A stretch of 39,511 nt of DNA from positions 1 through 39,511 of the forward strand of contig CAYFMJ010000007.1 in assembly GCA_964344235.1 (NCBI GenBank). The letters are read 5' to 3'. The translations under genes and the position numbers were made by a program. Within the stretch, counting starts at the first letter, position 1. The number at the start of each line of letters is the position of its first letter. Shown here in pieces: positions 14,567 to 25,659 of the stretch. The notes under the pieces were generated by a model, which was not told the DNA's origin, made no database searches, and saw only the letters and a list, made by a program, of their open reading frames with translations. The DNA comes from an uncultured Methanosarcinales archaeon. GTDB lineage: Archaea > Nanobdellota > Nanobdellia > Woesearchaeales > GW2011-AR9.

Positions 14567-17086
14567 TTAACAGAAGTTTATATGAGAAGTATCTGCAAGG
14601 GCTGTTTGACTTGCACCGAGCGAGGTAAGGAATTCTGTGGGATCCATTATGTTCGGTGACTTTGTAGCAAGATAATTATCACGACAGTAATTTGAGACTG
14701 CTGGCACAGACTGTCCGCTAGGAGGATACCATCTCTCCGAATCGTCAACTTTTCCTTCATATAGTTCAAAGTGAAGCATACCGCAATAACTTGCAATCCC
14801 CAGTTCTTGACCTTTTGATATAGATTGGCCAATAGTAACGGCGGCCATTTTATTGGCATCTATCTCTCCATAGTTCACTGTTTTACCAAGAGAAGGATGA
14901 TAGACCACAATTTTCCCTGCTTCACCAGATGAAAGCCCCTCATTGGAAATACCCCACCCATCATCACACGTAAGGAAACTGGTAGAAGTAGCTACAACAG
15001 TTCCATCTGCGATGGCAATCACCTTGCCTGGTGCGTTGGTGTAAATATCAATACCCACGTGGCACCTTGCACCGCCACCCCTTCGATCCCCAAAATTCCA
15101 ACTGACATGGTCGAAACTATCTTGCTTCAGTGGGAAGCAGAGCCCTGTTGATGGAGTGAGCGTTGGCGTTGTGCCAGGGGTGCTTACAGTCGTAGTCGCA
15201 CCAGTTCCATACGCAGCATTCGCTTTCGGCACCCAACCAATTGTCGGTACAAAAACGTTACCAACACCTAAGCCAACAAAAGGACTAATTTTATGCCATA
15301 CTTGATCAATATTACTACACCGTTCAGAGTTTTGACAATTCAGTGCTGCGTTATAGGTTATTTTTGTTGTGCCATAAGCTGGGGAGAAAGAAGCTGAAGA
15401 GGAAACAATCCCACTTGTCCCGAAGACCTCCGTTGCTATTTTTTGAGCAACTTTTCCTGCACCTTCTTTATTCCAGTGAAGTTGATCGTTTTCTATACAG
15501 AAACCACATCGCCCTGGCTGCGAAGGGTCTTCTAGGAGAGAATAGGTGTCAACAACATGGGTTAAAGGACTGTTAAGATTCGTTGAAATTAGATGATCAG
15601 TCCACTGCTTGGCACAGTAAGCTTGGCCATTGTCCCTTGGGTGAACCGCAATTACTGCGACTTTTTCAACTCCCGCATTGCGGGCTTCTGTAATCATCGT
15701 CTTAACTGAATTTTCATAGGATGAAGGCCAACAAGGAACGGAGCCACTTTGGTAAGAGATGCCATTCCCCGATGGAGAGATAATTAGAGCATCAAGCTCA
15801 GTTAGGTCGAATTTTGGGAAATCATTGTTTTTTAGATAGGTTGGCCCTTTGGCTCCAGTGGCATGAACGATTATTTCCGAACTAGGACATAATTGCTTTA
15901 GTTTAGTAGTCATCCTATCTGCTTCGTTTGGTAAAACGGTGCCAACAATGTTAGAAGCCCCAATGATTCCTATTTTTGCTGGGCAAGAACCAGAAGTAGC
16001 ACTAGCGCTACCAGGAGTTGCTGTTGAAGAAGGTAAAGAAGCTGGTGAAGCAGATGCAGCACCAACTGACAAAGGACCAACTATCGACGTACATTGAGCA
16101 TTTACTCCTTTGTGTTTTCCAGTTGTTCTCTCTGACAGAACTGTAGTGGGGAAGTTTGCGTTGTCAAATATTTCAAAAGCTCCATTGTTGTACACATAGA
16201 ACTCAGTCTCAAGTGAAAGAACCCCCGGGGTTGAGCTGTCTGTGACGGTGATTAGAGCGAAAGCTTGGCCATGGAAATCTTCATCGAGGCCTTTTGTATA
16301 CCCAAGAAGTCTCTTCCCTAAAGTCCCCGTGTTAACGAAGCGTACATTGTTACAGAGACCATCATAGTACGCATGGTTATGACCAGAGAATAAAGCAGCG
16401 ATGTTTTTTGTTTGTAATGAGAGGAATAAACTATCAACAAGGTTTTCTGGTCCCTCTACTGCAAAATTACAACTCCCATCATCAACAAAGCAGGAAGTGG
16501 CCAGCAAATTAACATGACGGAACACTAAATCGTTCGGTTGCACATTCGCTTGTACCCAATCAATCTCTTCCTGCTTCACTCCATTAATTCCGTACCAATC
16601 AATGATTGAGAAACCGGCGCCTTTGTGATTAAATTTATAACTGTAAGGGAAGCCTGGAAACGCACCGTTTTGATAGACTTGATCGGCGTTAGAAGACCAA
16701 AATAATTCCCATTCTTGCCGTGAACCAGGCGCGTTCAATAAGTCGTGGTTCCCTCCAACCGGGACGAAAGGAACGGTTAATTCGTCGAGGATTTTATTTT
16801 TGAATTCTGCAAGTTGAGCTTCATTATTCTTTGCATCGGTACATTGATCATCACCACCTGCAATCAGGTCCCCCACACCGACAACAAAGTCAGGGTTTAA
16901 GTCATTAATGATTGGAATTGCGTCATCAACCCAGTGACCTTGTTGAATGTTACATTTGTTAACATCGTGTGTATCTGAGATGACAACAAACGAAAAAGGG
17001 TCAACTGCTAATGCTGAGAACGATAGAAAAGCTGTTACGGCTAACAGTAGTACAACGAATTGTATTCTTCTATCCCTCATATTCAA
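14567..17086 (-). CDS. Secreted tri-domain enzyme: calcineurin-like phosphoesterase + SGNH hydrolase + M23 peptidase
   Basis: Signal peptide; DTH/GDL/GNHD/GHNH; GASN...GNG...DQLH; HVGID...MLHFELY. Domains are separated by Ser/Thr/Pro linkers. The start could be the next Met (17080). Confidence 0.85.
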   Translation of the reverse strand: MNMRDRRIQFVVLLLAVTAFLSFSALAVDPFSFVVISDTHDVNKCNIQQGHWVDDAIPIINDLNPDFVVGVGDLIAGGDDQCTDAKNNEAQLAEFKNKILDELTVPFVPVGGNHDLLNAPGSRQEWELFWSSNADQVYQNGAFPGFPYSYKFNHKGAGFSIIDWYGINGVKQEEIDWVQANVQPNDLVFRHVNLLATSCFVDDGSCNFAVEGPENLVDSLFLSLQTKNIAALFSGHNHAYYDGLCNNVRFVNTGTLGKRLLGYTKGLDEDFHGQAFALITVTDSSTPGVLSLETEFYVYNNGAFEIFDNANFPTTVLSERTTGKHKGVNAQCTSIVGPLSVGAASASPASLPSSTATPGSASATSGSCPAKIGIIGASNIVGTVLPNEADRMTTKLKQLCPSSEIIVHATGAKGPTYLKNNDFPKFDLTELDALIISPSGNGISYQSGSVPCWPSSYENSVKTMITEARNAGVEKVAVIAVHPRDNGQAYCAKQWTDHLISTNLNSPLTHVVDTYSLLEDPSQPGRCGFCIENDQLHWNKEGAGKVAQKIATEVFGTSGIVSSSASFSPAYGTTKITYNAALNCQNSERCSNIDQVWHKISPFVGLGVGNVFVPTIGWVPKANAAYGTGATTTVSTPGTTPTLTPSTGLCFPLKQDSFDHVSWNFGDRRGGGARCHVGIDIYTNAPGKVIAIADGTVVATSTSFLTCDDGWGISNEGLSSGEAGKIVVYHPSLGKTVNYGEIDANKMAAVTIGQSISKGQELGIASYCGMLHFELYEGKVDDSERWYPPSGQSVPAVSNYCRDNYLATKSPNIMDPTEFLTSLGASQTALADTSHINFC

Positions 17087-17645
17087 AGACCTCTGCTTCT
17101 GTTATTAAAAACGTTTGCGAAAGTGTTGTTTGTTTATTCAATAATGGGTTTTCTAATACTAGATCGAGCGTGTACTCTCCCGTCAGAGAACCAGGATTGA
17201 TCGTAAAGAAGTCTTTAACGGTGATGAGCTCTTTGGTTTCTTTACTTGATAGATCAAAATTAAAGTTATCTTTTTGGTTTACATCTAAGATCGTGTTTCC
17301 TGAAGGGTCTTTTATCCGATAATTCTCCACAATAATAACTTGCCCTTGGTATGTGCTTGTTTCCACTACAAATAGAAAGTGAACTTCTTGTCCCATAGCA
17401 AATTGGTTTGTTGGTGTGAGGCAGTTATAGAAGTTATCGATAAATGTACAAAAATCAAATTCTTTAATTGCTAGAGAGCCAGCTCGGCCGGAAGGGATGA
17501 ATTCTGCATTTAAGACAGATTGTTGTGGTGCGTCTGCTTTCACGCTAATAACACCGGTTGTGATTAGGACAAGAATTGTTGCTGAGGTAAAGACTACCAA
17601 AATGAGGAGTGCGAGTATTTCCATTGCTATTTTTCCTGATTTCAT
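17070..17645 (-). CDS. Pilin-like N-terminus plus Ig-like domain protein
   Basis: MKSG|KIAMEILALLIL with Glu at +5, then a beta-rich domain. Overlaps both neighbours. Confidence 0.7.
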   Translation of the reverse strand: MKSGKIAMEILALLILVVFTSATILVLITTGVISVKADAPQQSVLNAEFIPSGRAGSLAIKEFDFCTFIDNFYNCLTPTNQFAMGQEVHFLFVVETSTYQGQVIIVENYRIKDPSGNTILDVNQKDNFNFDLSSKETKELITVKDFFTINPGSLTGEYTLDLVLENPLLNKQTTLSQTFLITEAEVFEYEG

Positions 17646-20600
17646 TTGTTATGGTGTTGTAAGCATGTGTTGAAGACTTTCTGAAGGTCCGGAAGTTTGT
17701 GGCCACCTTGCCCATAATAGCTTGTTCCCGTTGGGCTGTAAGGGATAGAGGCCCATTCTTTTGCAAGTTTATCCCACATTGGAACGAAATTACCAGTACT
17801 TGCTGCAGTTTCAATATCAGCAAGTGAGACGCCACGTAATTCCACTTTCTTAAGTGCTGCTCTATCTTGTTCTGAGGGAATAAAGCCAGCTGAGAATTGA
17901 CCATGATTATTTTTCAAACCTTCATATGTGCTACCTAAGAATTGGTATCTTCCCGCAGCGGTAGAACATCCATCTGGACAAGGTTCTTTCCTATTAAAGT
18001 GAATAAGGATTTTCGGATGCTGTTCAAATCCAGTGAAATAATTCTTCCCACTTTCTACTTTCAATTTATTAAGATCATCTCGAATAAGGGAACCATCGAC
18101 AACTCGGTCATACCTATTGCTAGCTCCTTCCGCCCAGGCAATCGTGTCGAGTAACGCTCTCTGTGCGGCAGTAGTTCCGCCACTTGCAACACAATGAACT
18201 GTTTTCGAACCTTTTGAAACGTCAACGTTATAGGATCCCGGTGCCACTTGAGTTACGGTCGTAGGGATGCTAGGGGTACCTGGAGTCACTTGCTGTGTTG
18301 TAGCTGCGATATTTGTCACTGCATATATGCCGCCACATTCACTAGCGTGAGAACCACCTAAATTCTGATCAACGGCACAGAGGTAGGCTTTAATTTTTTG
18401 GAATTCTCCGGAGCTCGTTACAAATGGAGGATATGGTGCTAGGGTCTCTCCTAAGAAGTTCCTGTCAAAGAATAAATCTAGTAAACTTTTAATTTCACCA
18501 TCATCAACACCAGAATCTTGCATAATAAATGAAGCAATCCAATAATATAATGCAATCACATGATCGAGATCATTCTCTTTTAACTGCACGACTGCTTGCG
18601 CTTTTGATTGTACAAGATTATAATTTCCAGTGATGAAATCGTTATGAAGATCTTCCTTGGCAACTACTTCTGATACTTTCTCTGCCTGCACTCGGATTGG
18701 TTGTGTGTGAGTGTTCTTTCCTAGGTTGCTTTGCGCAACTGGAATAGAAGCGGTTGTACATAAACCAGCTTCATCTCCCTGGAGAAGTTGTGCCGTTAAT
18801 TGTATTGTGTTAAACTTCCCACCCGTTCCATGAGCCCCCTCTCCCGGTGGAATTGTTTGGAATTTACAGACGCCAGCGGACGAAGTTGCTGTGCTTTGTA
18901 AAAGTTTATTGAATACAAAACCGTCAATGGAGAATTTTGCGTTGTTAACTTGTTCTAGCGTTAATTCGCTCTCGCCGTTTAATGTTAGAATAACACCAAG
19001 AGTATCATAACCATTATTTTTATCAACAGTCACGCCGTTAGGGATTTCAACTTGATATTTGCCGTTCTCTTTGAAGGCATACTTGAATTGAAGTTGTTTT
19101 GGCTTTTCCGTACTGGAGGAAGGGCGTTTATCAACAAAGACGCTGCCTGCATTCCCACCGCAGCCGATGGAAGTTTCAGAATCTTGTAGTGTTACGATGT
19201 TCGCTAAACCACTCCCAGCCAACATTGTTTCTGTAACGGTAGCAAGAAGAACTCGTGGAGAGTATGGGCCGGAATGACCCTGCGGGAGAGGGATGGTCAT
19301 TTGAATTTGGTTTCTGTTATCTGTTAGCTTTAAACATGCAGGAGAACCGTCCATGAAGATATATGGTTTCACAACTATTTGGTCATTGAGTAGGAAGTTG
19401 TTTGGTCTTTCACAATCAACAAACTCGTCCGTTTCTTTGTTGTAACAGTGTAAGAATGGGTGCTCGAAATACGTTCCCCCAGCACCAACTAATGAAGCTA
19501 GCTGAGGACACGTTAACCTCCCTGAATTAGGATCTGGAGTACAACCTTCTTCTCCAGGAGTCATGATGTGAGTGATTGGAGTGTAAAAAACACCACCTGT
19601 TGCCGTTTGATATTCAGAATCGAAACATAAACTTGGATCTTCACCCTGCGCTAAGTAGAGTTCCATCACCATGTGATCATATCGGAAGTGGCTGCTGATT
19701 TTCTGGGGCGAAGGAATTGGCATATCCAACATTTGGTTTCGAGGAACACCCGTGAAGCTTGAACCGCCATCAACTTGTTTAACTCTCTCACCGGCAAAGG
19801 GTGTTTGAGCGTTGTTGATGTTCATACAATCGCAATTCTGTTGCGTACAGTCAATGTTAGGGTTACCCAGATCTTCTGGACCAACACATTTCAGATATGT
19901 TTTGTACCCTCGTAATTTACAACCAGGTAAGATGACTCCAGCAAGATTATAGTTGAATGTTGGAGTGCCAGCGATTGGGTTAAATGTTGTCATTTCTCTC
20001 TCTGCAAACATAAAGACATCTGTTCTTCCAGGAACAGAGTATGCTGTATCTAGGATAAAGTCAGTATCCATTGGGAAGTCATAGCCAAAGGCAGCTAAAC
20101 AAATAGATTCTGAGAAGCCCTGTGCTCCAGTGGCAAAGAATTGTTCTAAGTTAGCGTTGCCATAATCATCTTGGATCTCATTAATAGAAGTGTCCATTGC
20201 TTGGTCGATTGCTTTGAAACCAGCATCGAAGTATTCTCCAACTCCAACATCGTCATCGCCAGCATAGGCATCGGCATCTTTTAGGTTAAGAGGCGAACAG
20301 GAACTTGATAAGTAGGAAATCCCTTTGTAAATTAATCCACAGACATATTGCGTGAAAATTGTTTTACACATGCCGGCATCTTGGAAGCCAGTAAACTTCG
20401 CTTGCACAATACAGTTTCGTAACCCAATGAGGATGCTTTGCAGTAATTCTAAACGAGCATTAATTTGTGGGATACACATCGTTTGGAACGCACTGAGTGT
20501 TTGAGTGTGTGGATTTACTTCTGCAGTACTTGGTTTGTCCGGGTTAATATAATCAGGGATGTAGTTCAAACCAAATGCTCCTGAGAGATCGCGGCCTTGG

Positions 20601-23600
20601 TAATATCGCCAGTCTGGGTAATAGGTTCCCTGTTGCTTATTAGATTCTGAATAGATTCTTGCTTGTCGGTATTGCCATGGTTCGTCGTTACCATTGTCAT
20701 CTGTTTTCACTGCAGTTCGTACTTTTGGTCCTTCTGCTTTCTCTTCTTCTGGGTTTGGTCGCTGGCAGACACATTGATATTTGCTCCCATCATCACCAAT
20801 GAAACAATCTCGTGTGTGTCCTGCAGCAATCGTTTTGACACCGTCAACTCCCTGGTTGTTTTTGCCTTTCAAGATGACTTCATTCCCATCAGGAACTTCT
20901 TTGTAACACGCTCCGGAGCCACCTTCCATACTGTAGCCGTCGGTTGTTGCTTTATGGCCAGTTGTTCTCGCACATAAGGCGTTACAAGAAACATCGGGAG
21001 CGACACATAACTGACTTGAACCGGGTTCTTTTTCGTAGGCAAATTTTTTCACAGTGGAATATTCCCCAACTTCTCCGACCCTCTCAGGAACTGCTTTTAG
21101 TTTCCAAATGCCTTTAACTTCTGAATTTAATTCACCTTCCACCACATAATATTGATCAGTATACCCATCAGTAGGATCTTGATAACAGGTACGGACATTT
21201 TCGTTTGCATCAAAGTATTTTTTCAATGCAGGGTTTTTCTTTAATGGACAATTCTCTACTTTAATTAGCGGCGAACAACTTCCGGTAGCGGAACAGGATG
21301 CTTGCTCCGCAATAACAGTTTGTACTTCTTTCCAATCTTTATCCTCAGTCCATCTAGCAGGTACGGGACGACATAAGAAACGGTCACACGTCCATCGATA
21401 TAACTGGTCAATAGAAGATTCAAAGTCCCATGCTCCTGCGGAATCAGGACAGCGAGCATCAAAGGAATCTTTCTCAGGATCTAGTTTGTCTAATGTTTTC
21501 TTGGGGAAGGTCATATCTTTGATGCTATTGGCAAACTCTGGGTTTTGTCCGGCTAACTCTTCCCATTCTTCAATCGTGTCCTCGGAAAGAAGTGCTTGCC
21601 GCTCTGAAACGTCTTCAGGACAGGATTCAACATCTTCCTCCTGTTGTGACACTTTCGTTGTGATTGGTTCTAAATTTTCCATGAAGAATCGAAAGAAACG
21701 AGCAGCCATTTTGGTTAAGAACGAGCCCATACAACTTACACCAGTTACTAACATCACTGTTCTCATATACGGTTTAATTTCTTCAATGGCATTGATGGTG
21801 GCGTTGAGAGCGTCAACTCCTTCATTCGCTAGGAAATCTGGAACGAGTTCGGAACTTTCAATTGGAACGTCAACGAAATAGCCAAGATCGTAACACATCA
21901 CTTGTGTCTTTGTAGTACCCCACGCACCGTTAGTATCTTTTTCTTGATAATTGATTAAGATCTTAAGAGGCATCTTTAACTGCCGGTCTTGGAAGTCTTG
22001 CCAGAGATCTTCATCTCTCTCAACAAATTCATCAGCTCTTACAAGGTTTGAGGTGATGTAATATGATGTTTTTTCATCATTAATTGGCTGTGCATTTAGG
22101 GTAGGAGGAAGTAATTTACAGCCAGTAGCATAATCATCACTCTCTGTCTGTTGTTTTGTGCAAGCTTTCTGTACTCTTACTGTCGAGACACGGTAGCCCG
22201 ATTCAGGTTGTTTTGTGACTTGGTTGATGGTTTCCACAGCTGCACCACGATAGGAAAAGTTGAACACGGATTGTACTTGTTCTCTGCCTTCTTCCATGAG
22301 TTGTGGGTCTAGACGGAACGGTGCTTGGAATTCTATCAATGGATGGATGTCAAAGTCTTGATTTGCCGAGAAGCAGGTGTTAACGTTCACGGTCCGTTGC
22401 GCGTAGCCAGACTTCCCGGTAGCATCCTCTGCGATAATGTAGACGTGATACGATTTTGTTTGATCAGAGCTTAGTGAGGAAAGAGGTGAAATGAGGACTG
22501 ATTGTAAGCCAGACGGCACTTCACGTGGCGCAAGCTGTTCCAAACTGGAGAACGCAGGTGGGGGGAATGAAACATCGCTAAAGGTAAAGTTCCCTCCTTC
22601 ATCAGCAGTGGTTGAAGCAATAGCATATTGGAAATCTGCTTGATAATCATCAGCTCTTGGTTGGTACACAAAGAGGTAAAGAGTAGCTCCCGGTTCCGTC
22701 TCTCCAGTGATGTCCGTGTCAGCTCTGCCTTCATAGTATTCACTTCCTTTTGTCAATTCAAACTTCACTTGTGGCGGTTGTGTGTCGGAAAGTGTTGTCA
22801 GGGTTCTTAGGCTTTCCCAACCAACTGCATCAATAGCTTTAATTTCTATGATATTCGCCCCTTCTGTTAGTTGTACAGTATGTTCAAACGTGGTACCGTC
22901 TGTTTGTGCTTGAGATTTATTGTTAATGAGAATTTCAATGGAACTTTCCTCGGAGATGGTTCCAGAAAGAGTGATAGTTGTTTCTTCAATAAGATCTGGG
23001 AGGTTGTCAATGGTAATTGTAGGTTTGGTATTATCGGAGATTACCGTGAATTGTTTTTCGGCAGTGTTACCGGAAGGATCAACTGCTTGGACTGTGATGG
23101 TATTTGAGGTGTCTGCGATAATTTGGATTGTTGAAAATAAGAATGTGCCTGATTCGTCAACCGTTATGCCGGCAACAGGGTCGTTGTTGAGGATGACATT
23201 GACAAAAGCTCCAACTTCGGCGGAACCTTCAATCGAAAGAGTGTTCCCTTGTATTGTTGTAGGAAGTTCTACTGTTAGCTGGGGTGCTTCTGTATCGAGA
23301 GGGAGTGTTGAAAAGGAATAGAAGTTGCCGTTATCATCATCTGTTTGGCCATTGCTTTCAACAGAATAAGAGTAGGAAGTTTCTGGGTTAAGATTGTTGA
23401 GGGTAACTGAGTGTTCTGTTACGAGAGTTCCATGACCTTCTGTTTGGAAGTTAGATTCATCAGCACTATAGGAAACGAAACCATCAGCTGGTTCATCAGT
23501 TTCCCAGACAACTGTGGCAGAAGTGTCAGTAACATCAATAGTGTGAACATTAGAGATTTCTAACGCGCTTGCTACTGGAAGCATGATGAATAAAGCGAGG

Positions 23601-23644
23601 ACTAGTAAAACCGTTACTTGTTTGAGTTTTGTGTGTTGGTTCAT
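17642..23644 (-). CDS. Giant 2000-aa surface protein: FN3 + Ig-like repeats + Cys-rich core + C-terminal lambda-R-type lytic transglycosylase/lysozyme
   Basis: Signal peptide; SATVVWET...HSVTLNNLNPETSY (FN3); DTxxP Ig-like units; C-terminal RALLDTIAWAEG...STAAGRYQFL...QDRAAL...EWASIP...YYGQ, matching lambda R motifs. Confidence 0.88.
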   Translation of the reverse strand: MNQHTKLKQVTVLLVLALFIMLPVASALEISNVHTIDVTDTSATVVWETDEPADGFVSYSADESNFQTEGHGTLVTEHSVTLNNLNPETSYSYSVESNGQTDDDNGNFYSFSTLPLDTEAPQLTVELPTTIQGNTLSIEGSAEVGAFVNVILNNDPVAGITVDESGTFLFSTIQIIADTSNTITVQAVDPSGNTAEKQFTVISDNTKPTITIDNLPDLIEETTITLSGTISEESSIEILINNKSQAQTDGTTFEHTVQLTEGANIIEIKAIDAVGWESLRTLTTLSDTQPPQVKFELTKGSEYYEGRADTDITGETEPGATLYLFVYQPRADDYQADFQYAIASTTADEGGNFTFSDVSFPPPAFSSLEQLAPREVPSGLQSVLISPLSSLSSDQTKSYHVYIIAEDATGKSGYAQRTVNVNTCFSANQDFDIHPLIEFQAPFRLDPQLMEEGREQVQSVFNFSYRGAAVETINQVTKQPESGYRVSTVRVQKACTKQQTESDDYATGCKLLPPTLNAQPINDEKTSYYITSNLVRADEFVERDEDLWQDFQDRQLKMPLKILINYQEKDTNGAWGTTKTQVMCYDLGYFVDVPIESSELVPDFLANEGVDALNATINAIEEIKPYMRTVMLVTGVSCMGSFLTKMAARFFRFFMENLEPITTKVSQQEEDVESCPEDVSERQALLSEDTIEEWEELAGQNPEFANSIKDMTFPKKTLDKLDPEKDSFDARCPDSAGAWDFESSIDQLYRWTCDRFLCRPVPARWTEDKDWKEVQTVIAEQASCSATGSCSPLIKVENCPLKKNPALKKYFDANENVRTCYQDPTDGYTDQYYVVEGELNSEVKGIWKLKAVPERVGEVGEYSTVKKFAYEKEPGSSQLCVAPDVSCNALCARTTGHKATTDGYSMEGGSGACYKEVPDGNEVILKGKNNQGVDGVKTIAAGHTRDCFIGDDGSKYQCVCQRPNPEEEKAEGPKVRTAVKTDDNGNDEPWQYRQARIYSESNKQQGTYYPDWRYYQGRDLSGAFGLNYIPDYINPDKPSTAEVNPHTQTLSAFQTMCIPQINARLELLQSILIGLRNCIVQAKFTGFQDAGMCKTIFTQYVCGLIYKGISYLSSSCSPLNLKDADAYAGDDDVGVGEYFDAGFKAIDQAMDTSINEIQDDYGNANLEQFFATGAQGFSESICLAAFGYDFPMDTDFILDTAYSVPGRTDVFMFAEREMTTFNPIAGTPTFNYNLAGVILPGCKLRGYKTYLKCVGPEDLGNPNIDCTQQNCDCMNINNAQTPFAGERVKQVDGGSSFTGVPRNQMLDMPIPSPQKISSHFRYDHMVMELYLAQGEDPSLCFDSEYQTATGGVFYTPITHIMTPGEEGCTPDPNSGRLTCPQLASLVGAGGTYFEHPFLHCYNKETDEFVDCERPNNFLLNDQIVVKPYIFMDGSPACLKLTDNRNQIQMTIPLPQGHSGPYSPRVLLATVTETMLAGSGLANIVTLQDSETSIGCGGNAGSVFVDKRPSSSTEKPKQLQFKYAFKENGKYQVEIPNGVTVDKNNGYDTLGVILTLNGESELTLEQVNNAKFSIDGFVFNKLLQSTATSSAGVCKFQTIPPGEGAHGTGGKFNTIQLTAQLLQGDEAGLCTTASIPVAQSNLGKNTHTQPIRVQAEKVSEVVAKEDLHNDFITGNYNLVQSKAQAVVQLKENDLDHVIALYYWIASFIMQDSGVDDGEIKSLLDLFFDRNFLGETLAPYPPFVTSSGEFQKIKAYLCAVDQNLGGSHASECGGIYAVTNIAATTQQVTPGTPSIPTTVTQVAPGSYNVDVSKGSKTVHCVASGGTTAAQRALLDTIAWAEGASNRYDRVVDGSLIRDDLNKLKVESGKNYFTGFEQHPKILIHFNRKEPCPDGCSTAAGRYQFLGSTYEGLKNNHGQFSAGFIPSEQDRAALKKVELRGVSLADIETAASTGNFVPMWDKLAKEWASIPYSPTGTSYYGQGGHKLPDLQKVFNTCLQHHNK

Positions 23645-23670: not shown

Positions 23671-25659
23671 CTATTCAAATTCCGGCAGCGGAACAAGTGT
23701 ACTTTTTGCGTCAATATCTGTTAACAATGTAAAGAGATCATCTTGGCTGCCACTTTCTTCAGAGACGACGTGGAATGTTAACTGTTGGGCATTTTGAAGT
23801 TGTGAAAATGGAACTGTCCAGTTGGTTGCATATGCCCCTGTTAACTGTTGATTATCAAAGACACGCACTTCTAGTTGGTACGTAAAGTCAGCATCAGCGA
23901 GGAATTCCATTTTTTGGAAACTCTGTACTTGCTCATCTGTTGCTGAGGCAATGACCAGCGTTTCATCGTGGAATGGCTGACCAGATAGTTGGGAGAGTGT
24001 TGTGTTCTTATCAAAGCTAATGCGGATGGAAACGGTTTCATCTGTGTCAAGTATAACGCCCGGCAAAGGAGTGTTACCAGCAAGTTCATGTTTGAGTACT
24101 TTGATCTTGGAGGCAGGGAATTCGTATAATGGTGCTAAATTAAGTTCAAAAAGGCTGCCATCTTTAGTGACGACTCTCTGCCAGTCTTCTTTGTAGCCTT
24201 CTTTTTCTGCTCTCAGGATACCACCGACACAGTAGGGGATGTTAATGGAAGAACCGGCTTGATAGCCCGAGTTAGCAAAGTTAAATTCAGTGTTGCCGAG
24301 AGCACATTCATATTTGATACACGTCATACTAAGGTCTGCTTCACTAAGGGGTTGTTGATCGTACGTTCCTTCCAGATTGTCTATAGTTTCCCACGTTAAG
24401 ATTGTAACGGGGACTGTTTTTTTACCACAATACACATCATCATCAATAAAGCTTAAGGAAGAACCAGGTCTTGCTACTAGCGGAGTTTCTCGGTTTGGTA
24501 AATTACGAATAAGATGAACGGAAAAAGCTAAGTTAAATGTGTAATCACTATCTTCATCATATACTTGCACAAGAACAGGGTAGACAACATCATAGGTAAA
24601 TTTCCATGACTGGAGGCAAAGTGCAGAGAGAAGTTGTTGGCCCCCTAAAGTTCCTGATTGCATCTTGTTACCTTGCGTTGGCGTTACCTGGAAAACCATA
24701 GGGTAATTGTTATACTTGAACTGCACGCTTAGATCAGGGGAGGTAAATTCGTTGCCAAGATTCCAAACATAATGGTTTTCGTAGTAGGGAAATTCTTCGG
24801 GGAATTCTACGAACTCCGTTCCTTGCACTTTAAGTTGGTTGAGGTTTACTCGAATTAAATCTTGCAGGGTTTCTTTTGTTTCAGTAACTTTCCATGTTTT
24901 CTTGGAGCAGGAAAGGTCTAGGCCAGAGACAGGTACTTTTGGATGTTCTAGTGCAATTAAGTCCTGGGTAATGTCTTCAAATTTTAATTCTGCTAATTCT
25001 TGTTCGATGATGGCCGTGCCCAGTTCATGAATTTTTTTGAGTTTGACAGGGGATTCAGCATTATGTTGGAGAAGCTGGGAAACGGTTTCACCTTCTTTTG
25101 TTCGCACGTCAAGATGCCATTCTACATTGAATTGCACGGAGTTGTCAATAATTTGTGTATCTGCAGTGATGTCGCTCTTCTCAACGAAGTCATATGTTTC
25201 GGCAAATGCTCCCTCTCCAAAGACACAGGAGCGTAGGTTGTTTTCGATGTATTGGTCAATCCGCTGTTTGATATCCTGCAATGGCGGGATGTTGGTGGTA
25301 GTACCATACGCCCAGAACGGTACGACATGTGCCGGGGAAACGCGTAAGGAAGAGCTGGCGTCATTAGCGATGATGGAAGGTACGGTTAAATAACCTCCCT
25401 GCAAGCCAATTTGGAAGAGAGCGTCATTACCAAGTTGTTCAATACAGGCGGAGATAAGACTTTCCACGGAGCCTTTCTTTGTTGGTGAGAGTTCTCCTGG
25501 CGTAAATGTGAAGATTTCTGAGCGGAGAGCGATTAGGAGGATAACTGCAAGAAGGATAACAATACCTAAAATTATGAAGAGTGTTACTTGACCTTGTTTG
25601 TTCTTGAAAGTATTAGAAATAGCACTATTTTTAGACTGTAAACACCTCTTTTTGTACAT
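23671..25659 (-). CDS. Membrane-anchored 662-aa protein with class III-like signal peptide; first gene of the surface operon
   Basis: NKQG|QVTLFIILGIVILL. The N-terminal ~250 aa are paralogous to 10897-11796. TATA box ~23 nt upstream. Confidence 0.82.
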   Translation of the reverse strand: MYKKRCLQSKNSAISNTFKNKQGQVTLFIILGIVILLAVILLIALRSEIFTFTPGELSPTKKGSVESLISACIEQLGNDALFQIGLQGGYLTVPSIIANDASSSLRVSPAHVVPFWAYGTTTNIPPLQDIKQRIDQYIENNLRSCVFGEGAFAETYDFVEKSDITADTQIIDNSVQFNVEWHLDVRTKEGETVSQLLQHNAESPVKLKKIHELGTAIIEQELAELKFEDITQDLIALEHPKVPVSGLDLSCSKKTWKVTETKETLQDLIRVNLNQLKVQGTEFVEFPEEFPYYENHYVWNLGNEFTSPDLSVQFKYNNYPMVFQVTPTQGNKMQSGTLGGQQLLSALCLQSWKFTYDVVYPVLVQVYDEDSDYTFNLAFSVHLIRNLPNRETPLVARPGSSLSFIDDDVYCGKKTVPVTILTWETIDNLEGTYDQQPLSEADLSMTCIKYECALGNTEFNFANSGYQAGSSINIPYCVGGILRAEKEGYKEDWQRVVTKDGSLFELNLAPLYEFPASKIKVLKHELAGNTPLPGVILDTDETVSIRISFDKNTTLSQLSGQPFHDETLVIASATDEQVQSFQKMEFLADADFTYQLEVRVFDNQQLTGAYATNWTVPFSQLQNAQQLTFHVVSEESGSQDDLFTLLTDIDAKSTLVPLPEFE

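Follow-up and report, generated by a model that had tools for sequence, protein, structure and literature searches.

A lambda-R-type lytic transglycosylase domain at the C-terminus of a 2000-residue protein in a conserved Woesearchaeal operon

The stretch of DNA analysed here (the window; 39,511 nucleotides) comprises positions 1 to 39,511 of contig CAYFMJ010000007.1 (assembly GCA_964344235.1), from an archaeon of the Woesearchaeota type (DPANN). Its minus-strand open reading frame (ORF) at 17642..23644 encodes a protein of 2000 amino acids (aa), P0001, hereafter the giant, which ends in a domain of the lambda R lytic transglycosylase family with an intact catalytic Glu. The giant is the second gene of a conserved four-gene operon. 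We estimate at roughly 0.6 the probability that it is a secreted subunit of a conserved Woesearchaeal surface module encoded by these four genes, and that a glycan cutter has moved onto its C-terminus, where it would act on the wall of neighbouring bacteria. An earlier note, made from the sequence alone, had described the domain and proposed that it cuts the murein of another cell; its observation is confirmed, and its interpretation is partly supported.

The C-terminal lytic transglycosylase domain

All of the lambda endolysin motifs that had been listed for the C-terminal domain (the tip) are found, in the order given, on the translation of the giant: ALLDTIAWAEG (which contains Glu1839), YDRVVDG, HP, STAAGRYQFL, EQDRAAL, WASIP, and YYGQ. 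The catalytic Glu was also correctly located, its intact codon being at the given position when read on the DNA, and Glu1839 aligns to Glu19 of the lambda enzyme. Of 158 relatives of the domain, 155 have Glu in this column. The following positions define the tip:

17645..18238, minus strand: lambda-R / GH104-type lytic transglycosylase domain, aa 1803-2000 (from PDB, PHROG, AF2, and Foldseek)
18191..18193, minus strand: Cys1818 (VHCVAS), N-terminal half of a putative domain-closing disulfide
18128..18130, minus strand: codon GAA of the catalytic Glu1839
17663..17665, minus strand: Cys1994 (FNTCLQ), C-terminal half of the putative domain-closing disulfide

When the tip was searched against PDB sequences with phmmer, lambda lysozyme was the only match (3D3D and 1AM7; E 1e-8). 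Similarly, the PHROG_90 family, named 'endolysin', matches the tip with an E-value of 9.1e-26, and a tblastn search recovered 349 phage records at ~30% identity, mostly annotated endolysins beside holins. Structure prediction against lambda lysozyme, a check that the earlier note had called for, returned the lambda-lysozyme fold: the AlphaFold2 (AF2) model of the tip, based on a 32-sequence alignment, has a predicted local distance difference test score (pLDDT) of 94.2 and a predicted template modelling score (pTM) of 0.91, and 3D3D and 1AM7 occupy ranks 1-2 in Foldseek (probability 1.00; template modelling (TM) scores of 0.78 and 0.67 on target length). The domain has no match in Pfam even at E 10, and none in NCBIfam. 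A cyanobacterial relative (P0181), found in the search with the tip, carries the NCBI name 'glycoside hydrolase family 104 protein', and GH104 is the CAZy family of the lambda R lytic transglycosylase. Judged from its sequence, the tip would act as a transglycosylase and not as a hydrolase, and its product would be a muropeptide ending in 1,6-anhydro-N-acetylmuramic acid (1,6-anhydro-MurNAc).

The span first assigned to the domain, 17645-18170, does lie within it, but the folded part starts upstream, at about aa 1803 (window ~18238). The folded domain includes a beta-hairpin that bears Cys1818. This residue and Cys1994 had been proposed to bracket a disulfide-closed module, and their co-occurrence fits that proposal: among the 158 relatives of the tip, 47 have both Cys, 11 have a single one, and 100 have neither. 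A Cys1818-Cys1994 disulfide, which would join the N-terminal hairpin to the C-terminal helix, fits the sequences. However, the bracket characterizes a whole archaeal clade (described below), internal copies of the domain included, and it therefore marks a self-contained module rather than a device specific to the tip.

The view that this family is normally a small phage endolysin turned out to be incomplete: among the best 150 relatives, most are multidomain proteins, with lengths of 200-2400 aa, and the nearest relatives of the tip are Woesearchaeal wall-hydrolase fusions. The tip belongs to the lambda-R enzyme family but is no endolysin by role, since it forms part of an archaeal protein of 2000 aa that a conserved cellular operon encodes. 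With the lambda R endolysin (PDB 1AM7, 3D3D) it has in common the fold, the order of the motifs, the single catalytic Glu, and the match to PHROG_90. It differs from lambda R and the phage enzymes in sequence (~30% identity) and by a ~25-aa insertion, the N-terminal beta-hairpin, and two Cys pairs. In addition, lambda R is a free enzyme of ~158 aa encoded beside a holin, whereas the tip is the C-terminus of a secreted archaeal protein and falls in a clade separate from lambda R, common to multidomain hydrolases of Woesearchaeota.

The giant, its variable ends and the operon

Upstream of the tip, the giant is laid out as follows:

23558..23644, minus strand: signal peptide, aa 1-29 (...PVASA, followed by LE), from hydrophobicity and homolog conservation
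22793..23557, minus strand: three immunoglobulin (Ig)-like domains (FN3, Big_6/Big_13, and Glucodextran_B), aa 30-284, from Pfam
18335..22792, minus strand: Cys-rich core, aa 285-1770, which ends at Cys1770, of the invariant class, as aligned over 97 homologs
18239..18334, minus strand: Thr/Pro/Gln-rich linker, aa 1771-1802, where homologs end or bear other tails

The sole strongly hydrophobic segment of the giant is aa 1-29 (Kyte-Doolittle 2.69, against at most 1.43 elsewhere). In 31 homologs its P-x-x-x-A-L-E pattern hardly varies, the AxA-type site is kept, and the signal peptide is probably cleaved. Beyond this segment, a hydropathy scan found no transmembrane-grade segment or other anchor in the giant, so that retention at the cell would need gene 1 and/or gene 3 of the operon.

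The three N-terminal domains are recognized by Pfam (fn3, 4e-6; Big_6, 2.9e-7; Glucodextran_B, 2.3e-10), and a PDB profile search with the giant alignment matched only Ig/FN3 chains, in this region. It had been suggested that an FN3/Ig stalk holds the tip off the cell. As written, this suggestion is unsupported: the Ig-like domains are confined to aa 30-284, N-terminal and beside the signal peptide, and the Cys-rich core of ~1480 aa separates them from the tip. About 40 Cys of the core are invariant in the homolog alignment, and searches of Pfam, NCBIfam, the ESM Atlas, and PDB sequences gave no match to it. For aa 580-1770, the AF2 model (63 sequences; pLDDT 80.5, pTM 0.63) contains a 64-residue helix, long bundles of helices, and several beta-sandwich domains in a row. 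In Foldseek, this model retrieved only integrin (alpha leg), adhesin, and pilin chains, at TM 0.05-0.10. A fold assignment of the core from these matches was dropped, as they represent generic beta-sandwich arrays. The predicted structure of the core resembles that of a scaffold or an adhesin. A literature search for a described Cys-rich surface protein of Woesearchaeota gave nothing relevant. The Thr/Pro linker that had been noted before the tip is present; its letters, TTQQVTPGTPSIPTTVTQ, were confirmed directly at aa 1782-1799.

A database search with the core yielded 97 homologs (25-50% identity; 1100-2400 aa long), from metagenome-assembled genomes (MAGs) named Woesearchaeota or Nanoarchaeota. 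At the level of contigs, a search with the single giant sequence gave no relative and the family alignment (A2) did. In 90 homologs, the core alignment to P0001 stops at aa ~1760-1773, after a nearly invariant Cys. Among the homologs with a complete end (n=90), 54 end at this junction and 36 bear unrelated tails; when one genome is taken per GTDB species, 46/71 giants are without a tail and 25/71 are tailed. Among the tails are an M74 murein endopeptidase (Pfam 2.8e-14), bacterial SH3 domains (SH3_3/SH3b), a lectin-like repeat, small Cys-rich modules, and a GxSxG hydrolase-like domain. This list of C-terminal domains, which the earlier note had also asked for, shows tails that differ after a fixed junction (25/71 at the species level). 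The idea of a swappable tip is supported in that the C-termini of the giants vary and the module occurs in other proteins, but most tips are of a binding type or absent, and enzymes are rare.

Two of the tails can be described further. The 277-aa tail at L081:8849-9679 (plus strand) has no Pfam match, and its GxSxG motif (HSFGG) suggests an alpha/beta-hydrolase. The tail at L012:15458-16057 (plus strand) consists of three repeats of ~60 aa (ITLKSAH..YCSSW..CTRP..WE.F.IE); a weak match to an alpha-galactosyl-binding lectin family raises the possibility that this tip binds carbohydrates.

The operon encodes, in order, a protein of ~670 aa (gene 1), the giant (gene 2), a protein of ~190 aa (gene 3), and a variable murein hydrolase of 400-1370 aa (gene 4). 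Seen in about 70 species-level genomes, it keeps this order across 78 species-level loci, essentially all of those with enough flanking DNA, and the common flanks are PAC2 upstream and enolase plus RelA/SpoT downstream. The three other genes of the window operon are:

23671..25659, minus strand: gene 1, 662 aa, with N-terminal KQGQ and a hydrophobic helix, directly upstream of the giant
17070..17645, minus strand: gene 3, 191 aa, hydrophobic helix near the N-terminus; start codon ATG overlapping the TGA of the giant
14567..17086, minus strand: gene 4, 839 aa, a metallophosphoesterase + M23 peptidase fusion (Pfam)

Gene 1, which adjoins the giant in nearly every locus with upstream DNA, has no Pfam or NCBIfam match. 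Both gene 1 and gene 3 start with a short charged stretch, followed by a hydrophobic helix of ~20 residues; that of gene 1 is reminiscent of a class III signal or a membrane anchor. In the window, a 4-nucleotide ATGA overlap joins the stop of the giant and the start of gene 3, and elsewhere gene 3 often overlaps the stop of the giant as well. Homologs of gene 3 are present in 70 loci (mean column identity 43%), and the gene follows the giant irrespective of the type of tail.

Gene 4 of the window matches Metallophos (2.5e-11) and Peptidase_M23 (2.3e-5) in Pfam. It has no glycan-cutting domain, and within the window the profile hidden Markov model (HMM) of the lambda-type lytic transglycosylase (LT) matches only the giant. 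The substrate of its calcineurin-like Metallophos domain might be teichoic-acid or other phosphodiester links. The ORFs at position 4 were scanned with Pfam in 56 other species and the window (57 ORFs). The domains found are SLT (13), Phage_lysozyme2 (4), Hydrolase_2 (4), and Glucosaminidase (2), as well as GDSL (17), FGE-sulfatase-like (14), DUF2272 (9), Metallophos (6), Amidase_2 (4), M15_4 (3), M23 (3), and M74 (1), plus polysaccharide deacetylase. Enolase stands at position 4 in 5/57 cases, which thus have no gene 4; loci L021, L022, L024, L029, and L073 lack gene 4, with enolase directly after gene 3.

The lambda-LT HMM detected the module in 12 other loci, which represent 11 distinct species (L003 and L033 are the same contig). 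All of these copies are encoded downstream of the giant: 10 of the species have the module in gene 4, and in L073 it belongs to a 649-aa protein encoded by the ORF after enolase. The same-family genome G016 has the giant, gene 3, and a gene 4 that combines LT and Metallophos. In the window, it is the giant and not gene 4 that bears the glycan cutter.

Source of the domain and of its substrate

A FastTree phylogeny of 158 domains places the tip within a clade of 67 domains (support 99%). Its members include all eight gene-4 copies in the tree, the three domains of related genomes, and the C-terminal domain of a second giant, P0130; the 13 members of known origin all come from Woesearchaeota/Nanoarchaeota. 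At 48-50% identity, the closest relatives of the tip combine several domains, as in DUF2272-LT-FGE and GDSL-LT-M23; one of them, P0250, is apparently the gene-4 product of locus L080. The nesting of the tip in a Woesearchaeal clade indicates that the module was recruited from a Woesearchaeal pool and not recently from a phage. Two other origins were rejected. A recent capture from a phage is ruled out by the archaeal clade and by the identity of only ~30% to phage enzymes. A simple move from gene 4 of the same family is likewise ruled out, as the LT of G016 is 37% identical to the tip, against 48-50% for gene-4 domains of more distant Woesearchaeota.

P0130 is a distant giant of 2091 aa with the same domain at its C-terminus, the same Cys pair, and a 653-aa gene directly upstream. 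Among giants, a fused lambda-type tip is present only in the window and in P0130. As the two tips are not sisters in the FastTree phylogeny, the tree indicates that the two giants gained them independently. The family of P0130 (2000-3000 aa; Woesearchaeota/Pacearchaeota) bears many hydrolases on the giant itself, namely SLT, NlpC/P60, M15_4, Amidase_3, GDSL, Metallophos, and YkuD. It has in common with the window family a Cys-containing helical segment, which covers 188 columns only (hhalign probability 92%, E 5.7e-7), and the two families have the same upstream partner of ~650 aa.

The archaeal host proposed in the earlier note is borne out by the GatD and PAC2 neighbours and by the naming of the homologs. 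The host genome, of Woesearchaeota type, comprises 1.19 Mb in 37 contigs and is 96% complete. Neither Mur ligase (PF08245) nor FtsW/RodA (PF01098) was found in it, and both were detected in bacterial control genomes. The substrate must therefore be foreign murein, in agreement with the claim that the target is another cell's wall. SLT (PF01464), also found in the bacterial controls, is absent from the host genome, and the lambda-type domain is present in a single copy, which makes the tip the only glycan-strand cutter detectable in this genome.

A surface module and its alternatives

Under the explanation that we favour, the surface module would consist of an anchored ~670-aa protein, the Cys-rich giant, an anchored ~190-aa protein, and variable bacterial-wall hydrolases. 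In the lineage of the window, the cutter of glycan strands would sit on the C-terminus of the giant, past Cys1770, and not in gene 4. The giant would be exported by Sec and fold with many disulfides, and its two anchored partners probably hold it at the cell surface. There it would display the lambda-type lytic transglycosylase, probably closed by the Cys1818-Cys1994 disulfide. Glu1839, as the single acid catalyst, would cleave the beta-1,4 bonds between MurNAc and N-acetylglucosamine and leave 1,6-anhydro-MurNAc ends. Together with the gene-4 enzyme (M23 endopeptidase and phosphoesterase), the tip may breach or break down a neighbouring bacterium's wall, and the target may be a living partner.

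Several observations weigh against this explanation. With the lambda-type domain HMM, the fused form was found in 0/97 other homologs of the family, and no giant carries the domain in any of 78 species-level loci besides the window, nor in any of 40 related genomes. The fused giant is thus known once, from one contig and one cluster member, and its absence elsewhere means that the fusion could be a recent event, possibly of little consequence. Moreover, the fold of the core has no informative match, and its role as a scaffold is read from its context.

A bolder version, which we put forward only tentatively, is that the operon encodes a so far undescribed Woesearchaeal surface organelle for breaching bacterial walls, that nearly all of its carriers live on bacteria, and that the core is a new class of host-contact scaffold. 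If this were true, the C-terminus of the giant and the gene-4 protein would meet at one working site, which would explain why modules hop freely between them.

Alternatively, the operon may serve to scavenge: free debris of peptidoglycan (necromass) would be digested as a source of peptides and amino sugars, with the giant as a retention or adhesion scaffold and no host breached. The mixture of hydrolases (esterase, deacetylase, amidase, peptidases, and several glycan cutters) does resemble a complete degradation set, the neighbourhood is one of fixed housekeeping genes (PAC2, enolase, RelA) and not a mobile island, and no pore-former or injection device is seen in the window. However, the SH3b, lectin-like, and many small Cys-rich tails suggest the binding of intact surfaces, and the enzymes are linked to a structural protein of 2000 aa and its two anchored partners instead of being small and soluble; we consider scavenging rather unlikely. 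Improbable, in our judgement, is a polymorphic effector, in which the giant would deliver a variable C-terminal weapon for competition, exchanged between strains like the tips of Rhs and contact-dependent inhibition (CDI) systems, with the lysozyme as one payload. Like polymorphic toxin, Rhs, and CDI proteins, the giant has a large conserved N-terminal body, to which unrelated C-terminal domains are joined at a fixed point after Cys1770 (25/71 species); two unrelated giants gained the same tip independently, and the P0130 family bears many different hydrolase ends. Unlike those toxins, it has no cognate immunity gene: the ~190-aa gene downstream is invariant whatever the tail (70 loci). No orphan tip cassettes are seen downstream, 46/71 giants are tailless, and the tails that exist are mostly small Cys-rich or binding modules and not toxins.

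The restriction of the fusion to one contig could also point to a silent tip that merely binds murein, or to a neutral or artefactual fusion (assembly chimera or recent read-through). This is likewise improbable, given that the catalytic Glu and all family motifs are intact, that the domain falls in an archaeal clade and not with a contaminant phage or bacterium, and that P0130 has the same architecture independently. In addition, the GC content over 17,600-18,450 is similar to that of the rest of the giant gene, the reading frame has no interruption, and gene 3 retains its ATGA overlap. Finally, an autolysin for the archaeon's own murein-like wall might be imagined, working alongside two proteins that the window also encodes: a 1468-aa GT51 + transpeptidase protein, resembling a class A penicillin-binding protein (PBP), and a YkuD-domain protein. 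The failure to find PF08245 and PF01098 in a 96%-complete genome, with bacterial controls positive, makes this role very improbable.

The favoured surface module has published precedents. Secreted proteins of 2000-3000 aa with a murein lytic transglycosylase were described in Woesearchaeota/Pacearchaeota as fam00969, and were interpreted as a means of binding or degrading bacterial walls (Castelle, 2021; PMC8204110). The concept of a giant extracellular transglycosylase has thus been in print since 2021, which limits the surprise of the present case. Both fam00969 and the giant of the window (2000 aa plus signal peptide) are large extracellular proteins with a murein transglycosylase. However, the enzyme of fam00969 is of the SLT/GH23 type, whereas the tip is of the lambda/GH104 type and undetected by Pfam. 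In addition, giants of the window family normally carry no enzyme, and the enzymes are encoded by the separate gene 4, unlike in fam00969. The P0130 family, with its SLT and other hydrolase ends, looks like fam00969.

Hydrolases of bacterial walls occur in murein-free archaea, with Nanoarchaeota as an especially common source, and have been taken as a sign of antagonism or predation (Strock et al., 2025, PMC12352652; for GH23 transglycosylases of Woesearchaeota, Vigneron et al., 2022, PMC9723730). The text of the Strock survey contains neither lambda nor GH104 as a term, Vigneron et al. give GH23 only for Woesearchaeota, and the passages considered from the two papers do not mention the four-gene operon. 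A further parallel is the baseplate protein of cyanophage A-1(L) (PDB 8KEA), which is the third-best fold match to the tip (E 8.6e-5, probability 1.00). Like the giant, it carries a lambda-lysozyme-like domain within a large structural protein, in its case one that must pass the bacterial wall. It is nevertheless a component of a phage tail and not a cellular surface protein, and it has no sequence relation to the giant outside the lysozyme domain.

What is specific to the window is a lambda/GH104 module missed by both Pfam and NCBIfam, its unique place on this family of giants, and the evidence that modules move between the end of the giant and gene 4. As both databases are blind to the archaeal GH104 clade, domain-based counts of archaeal peptidoglycan hydrolases may miss it. 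The tip (aa ~1800-2000, Glu1839) offers a concrete enzyme for the long-standing idea that DPANN archaea of the Woesearchaeota type live or prey on bacteria. More generally, wall-cutting modules shuffled between two genes of one operon point to a dedicated surface apparatus rather than to stray transferred genes.

Some minor observations concern the rest of the contig and the related loci. An odd tRNA had been proposed at window 12253-12357; ARAGORN found no tRNA in the window and Rfam, at gathering thresholds, no RNA family. The class A PBP-like protein of 1468 aa is encoded at window 32310-36716 (minus strand), with GT51 (Pfam 4.8e-32) and a weak transpeptidase match; no Mur ligase or FtsW/RodA accompanies this putative murein synthase in the genome. 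At window 8603-11817 (minus strand) there is a second two-gene unit, perhaps a paralogous operon, in which a gene for a 306-aa protein is followed by an overlapping one for a 765-aa protein with a YkuD L,D-transpeptidase domain (Pfam 1.8e-6). Lastly, L004, L007, L009, and about 25 other operon loci are titled 'uncultured Methanosarcinales archaeon'; their gene content is that of Woesearchaeota/Nanoarchaeota MAGs, and the titles look mislabelled.

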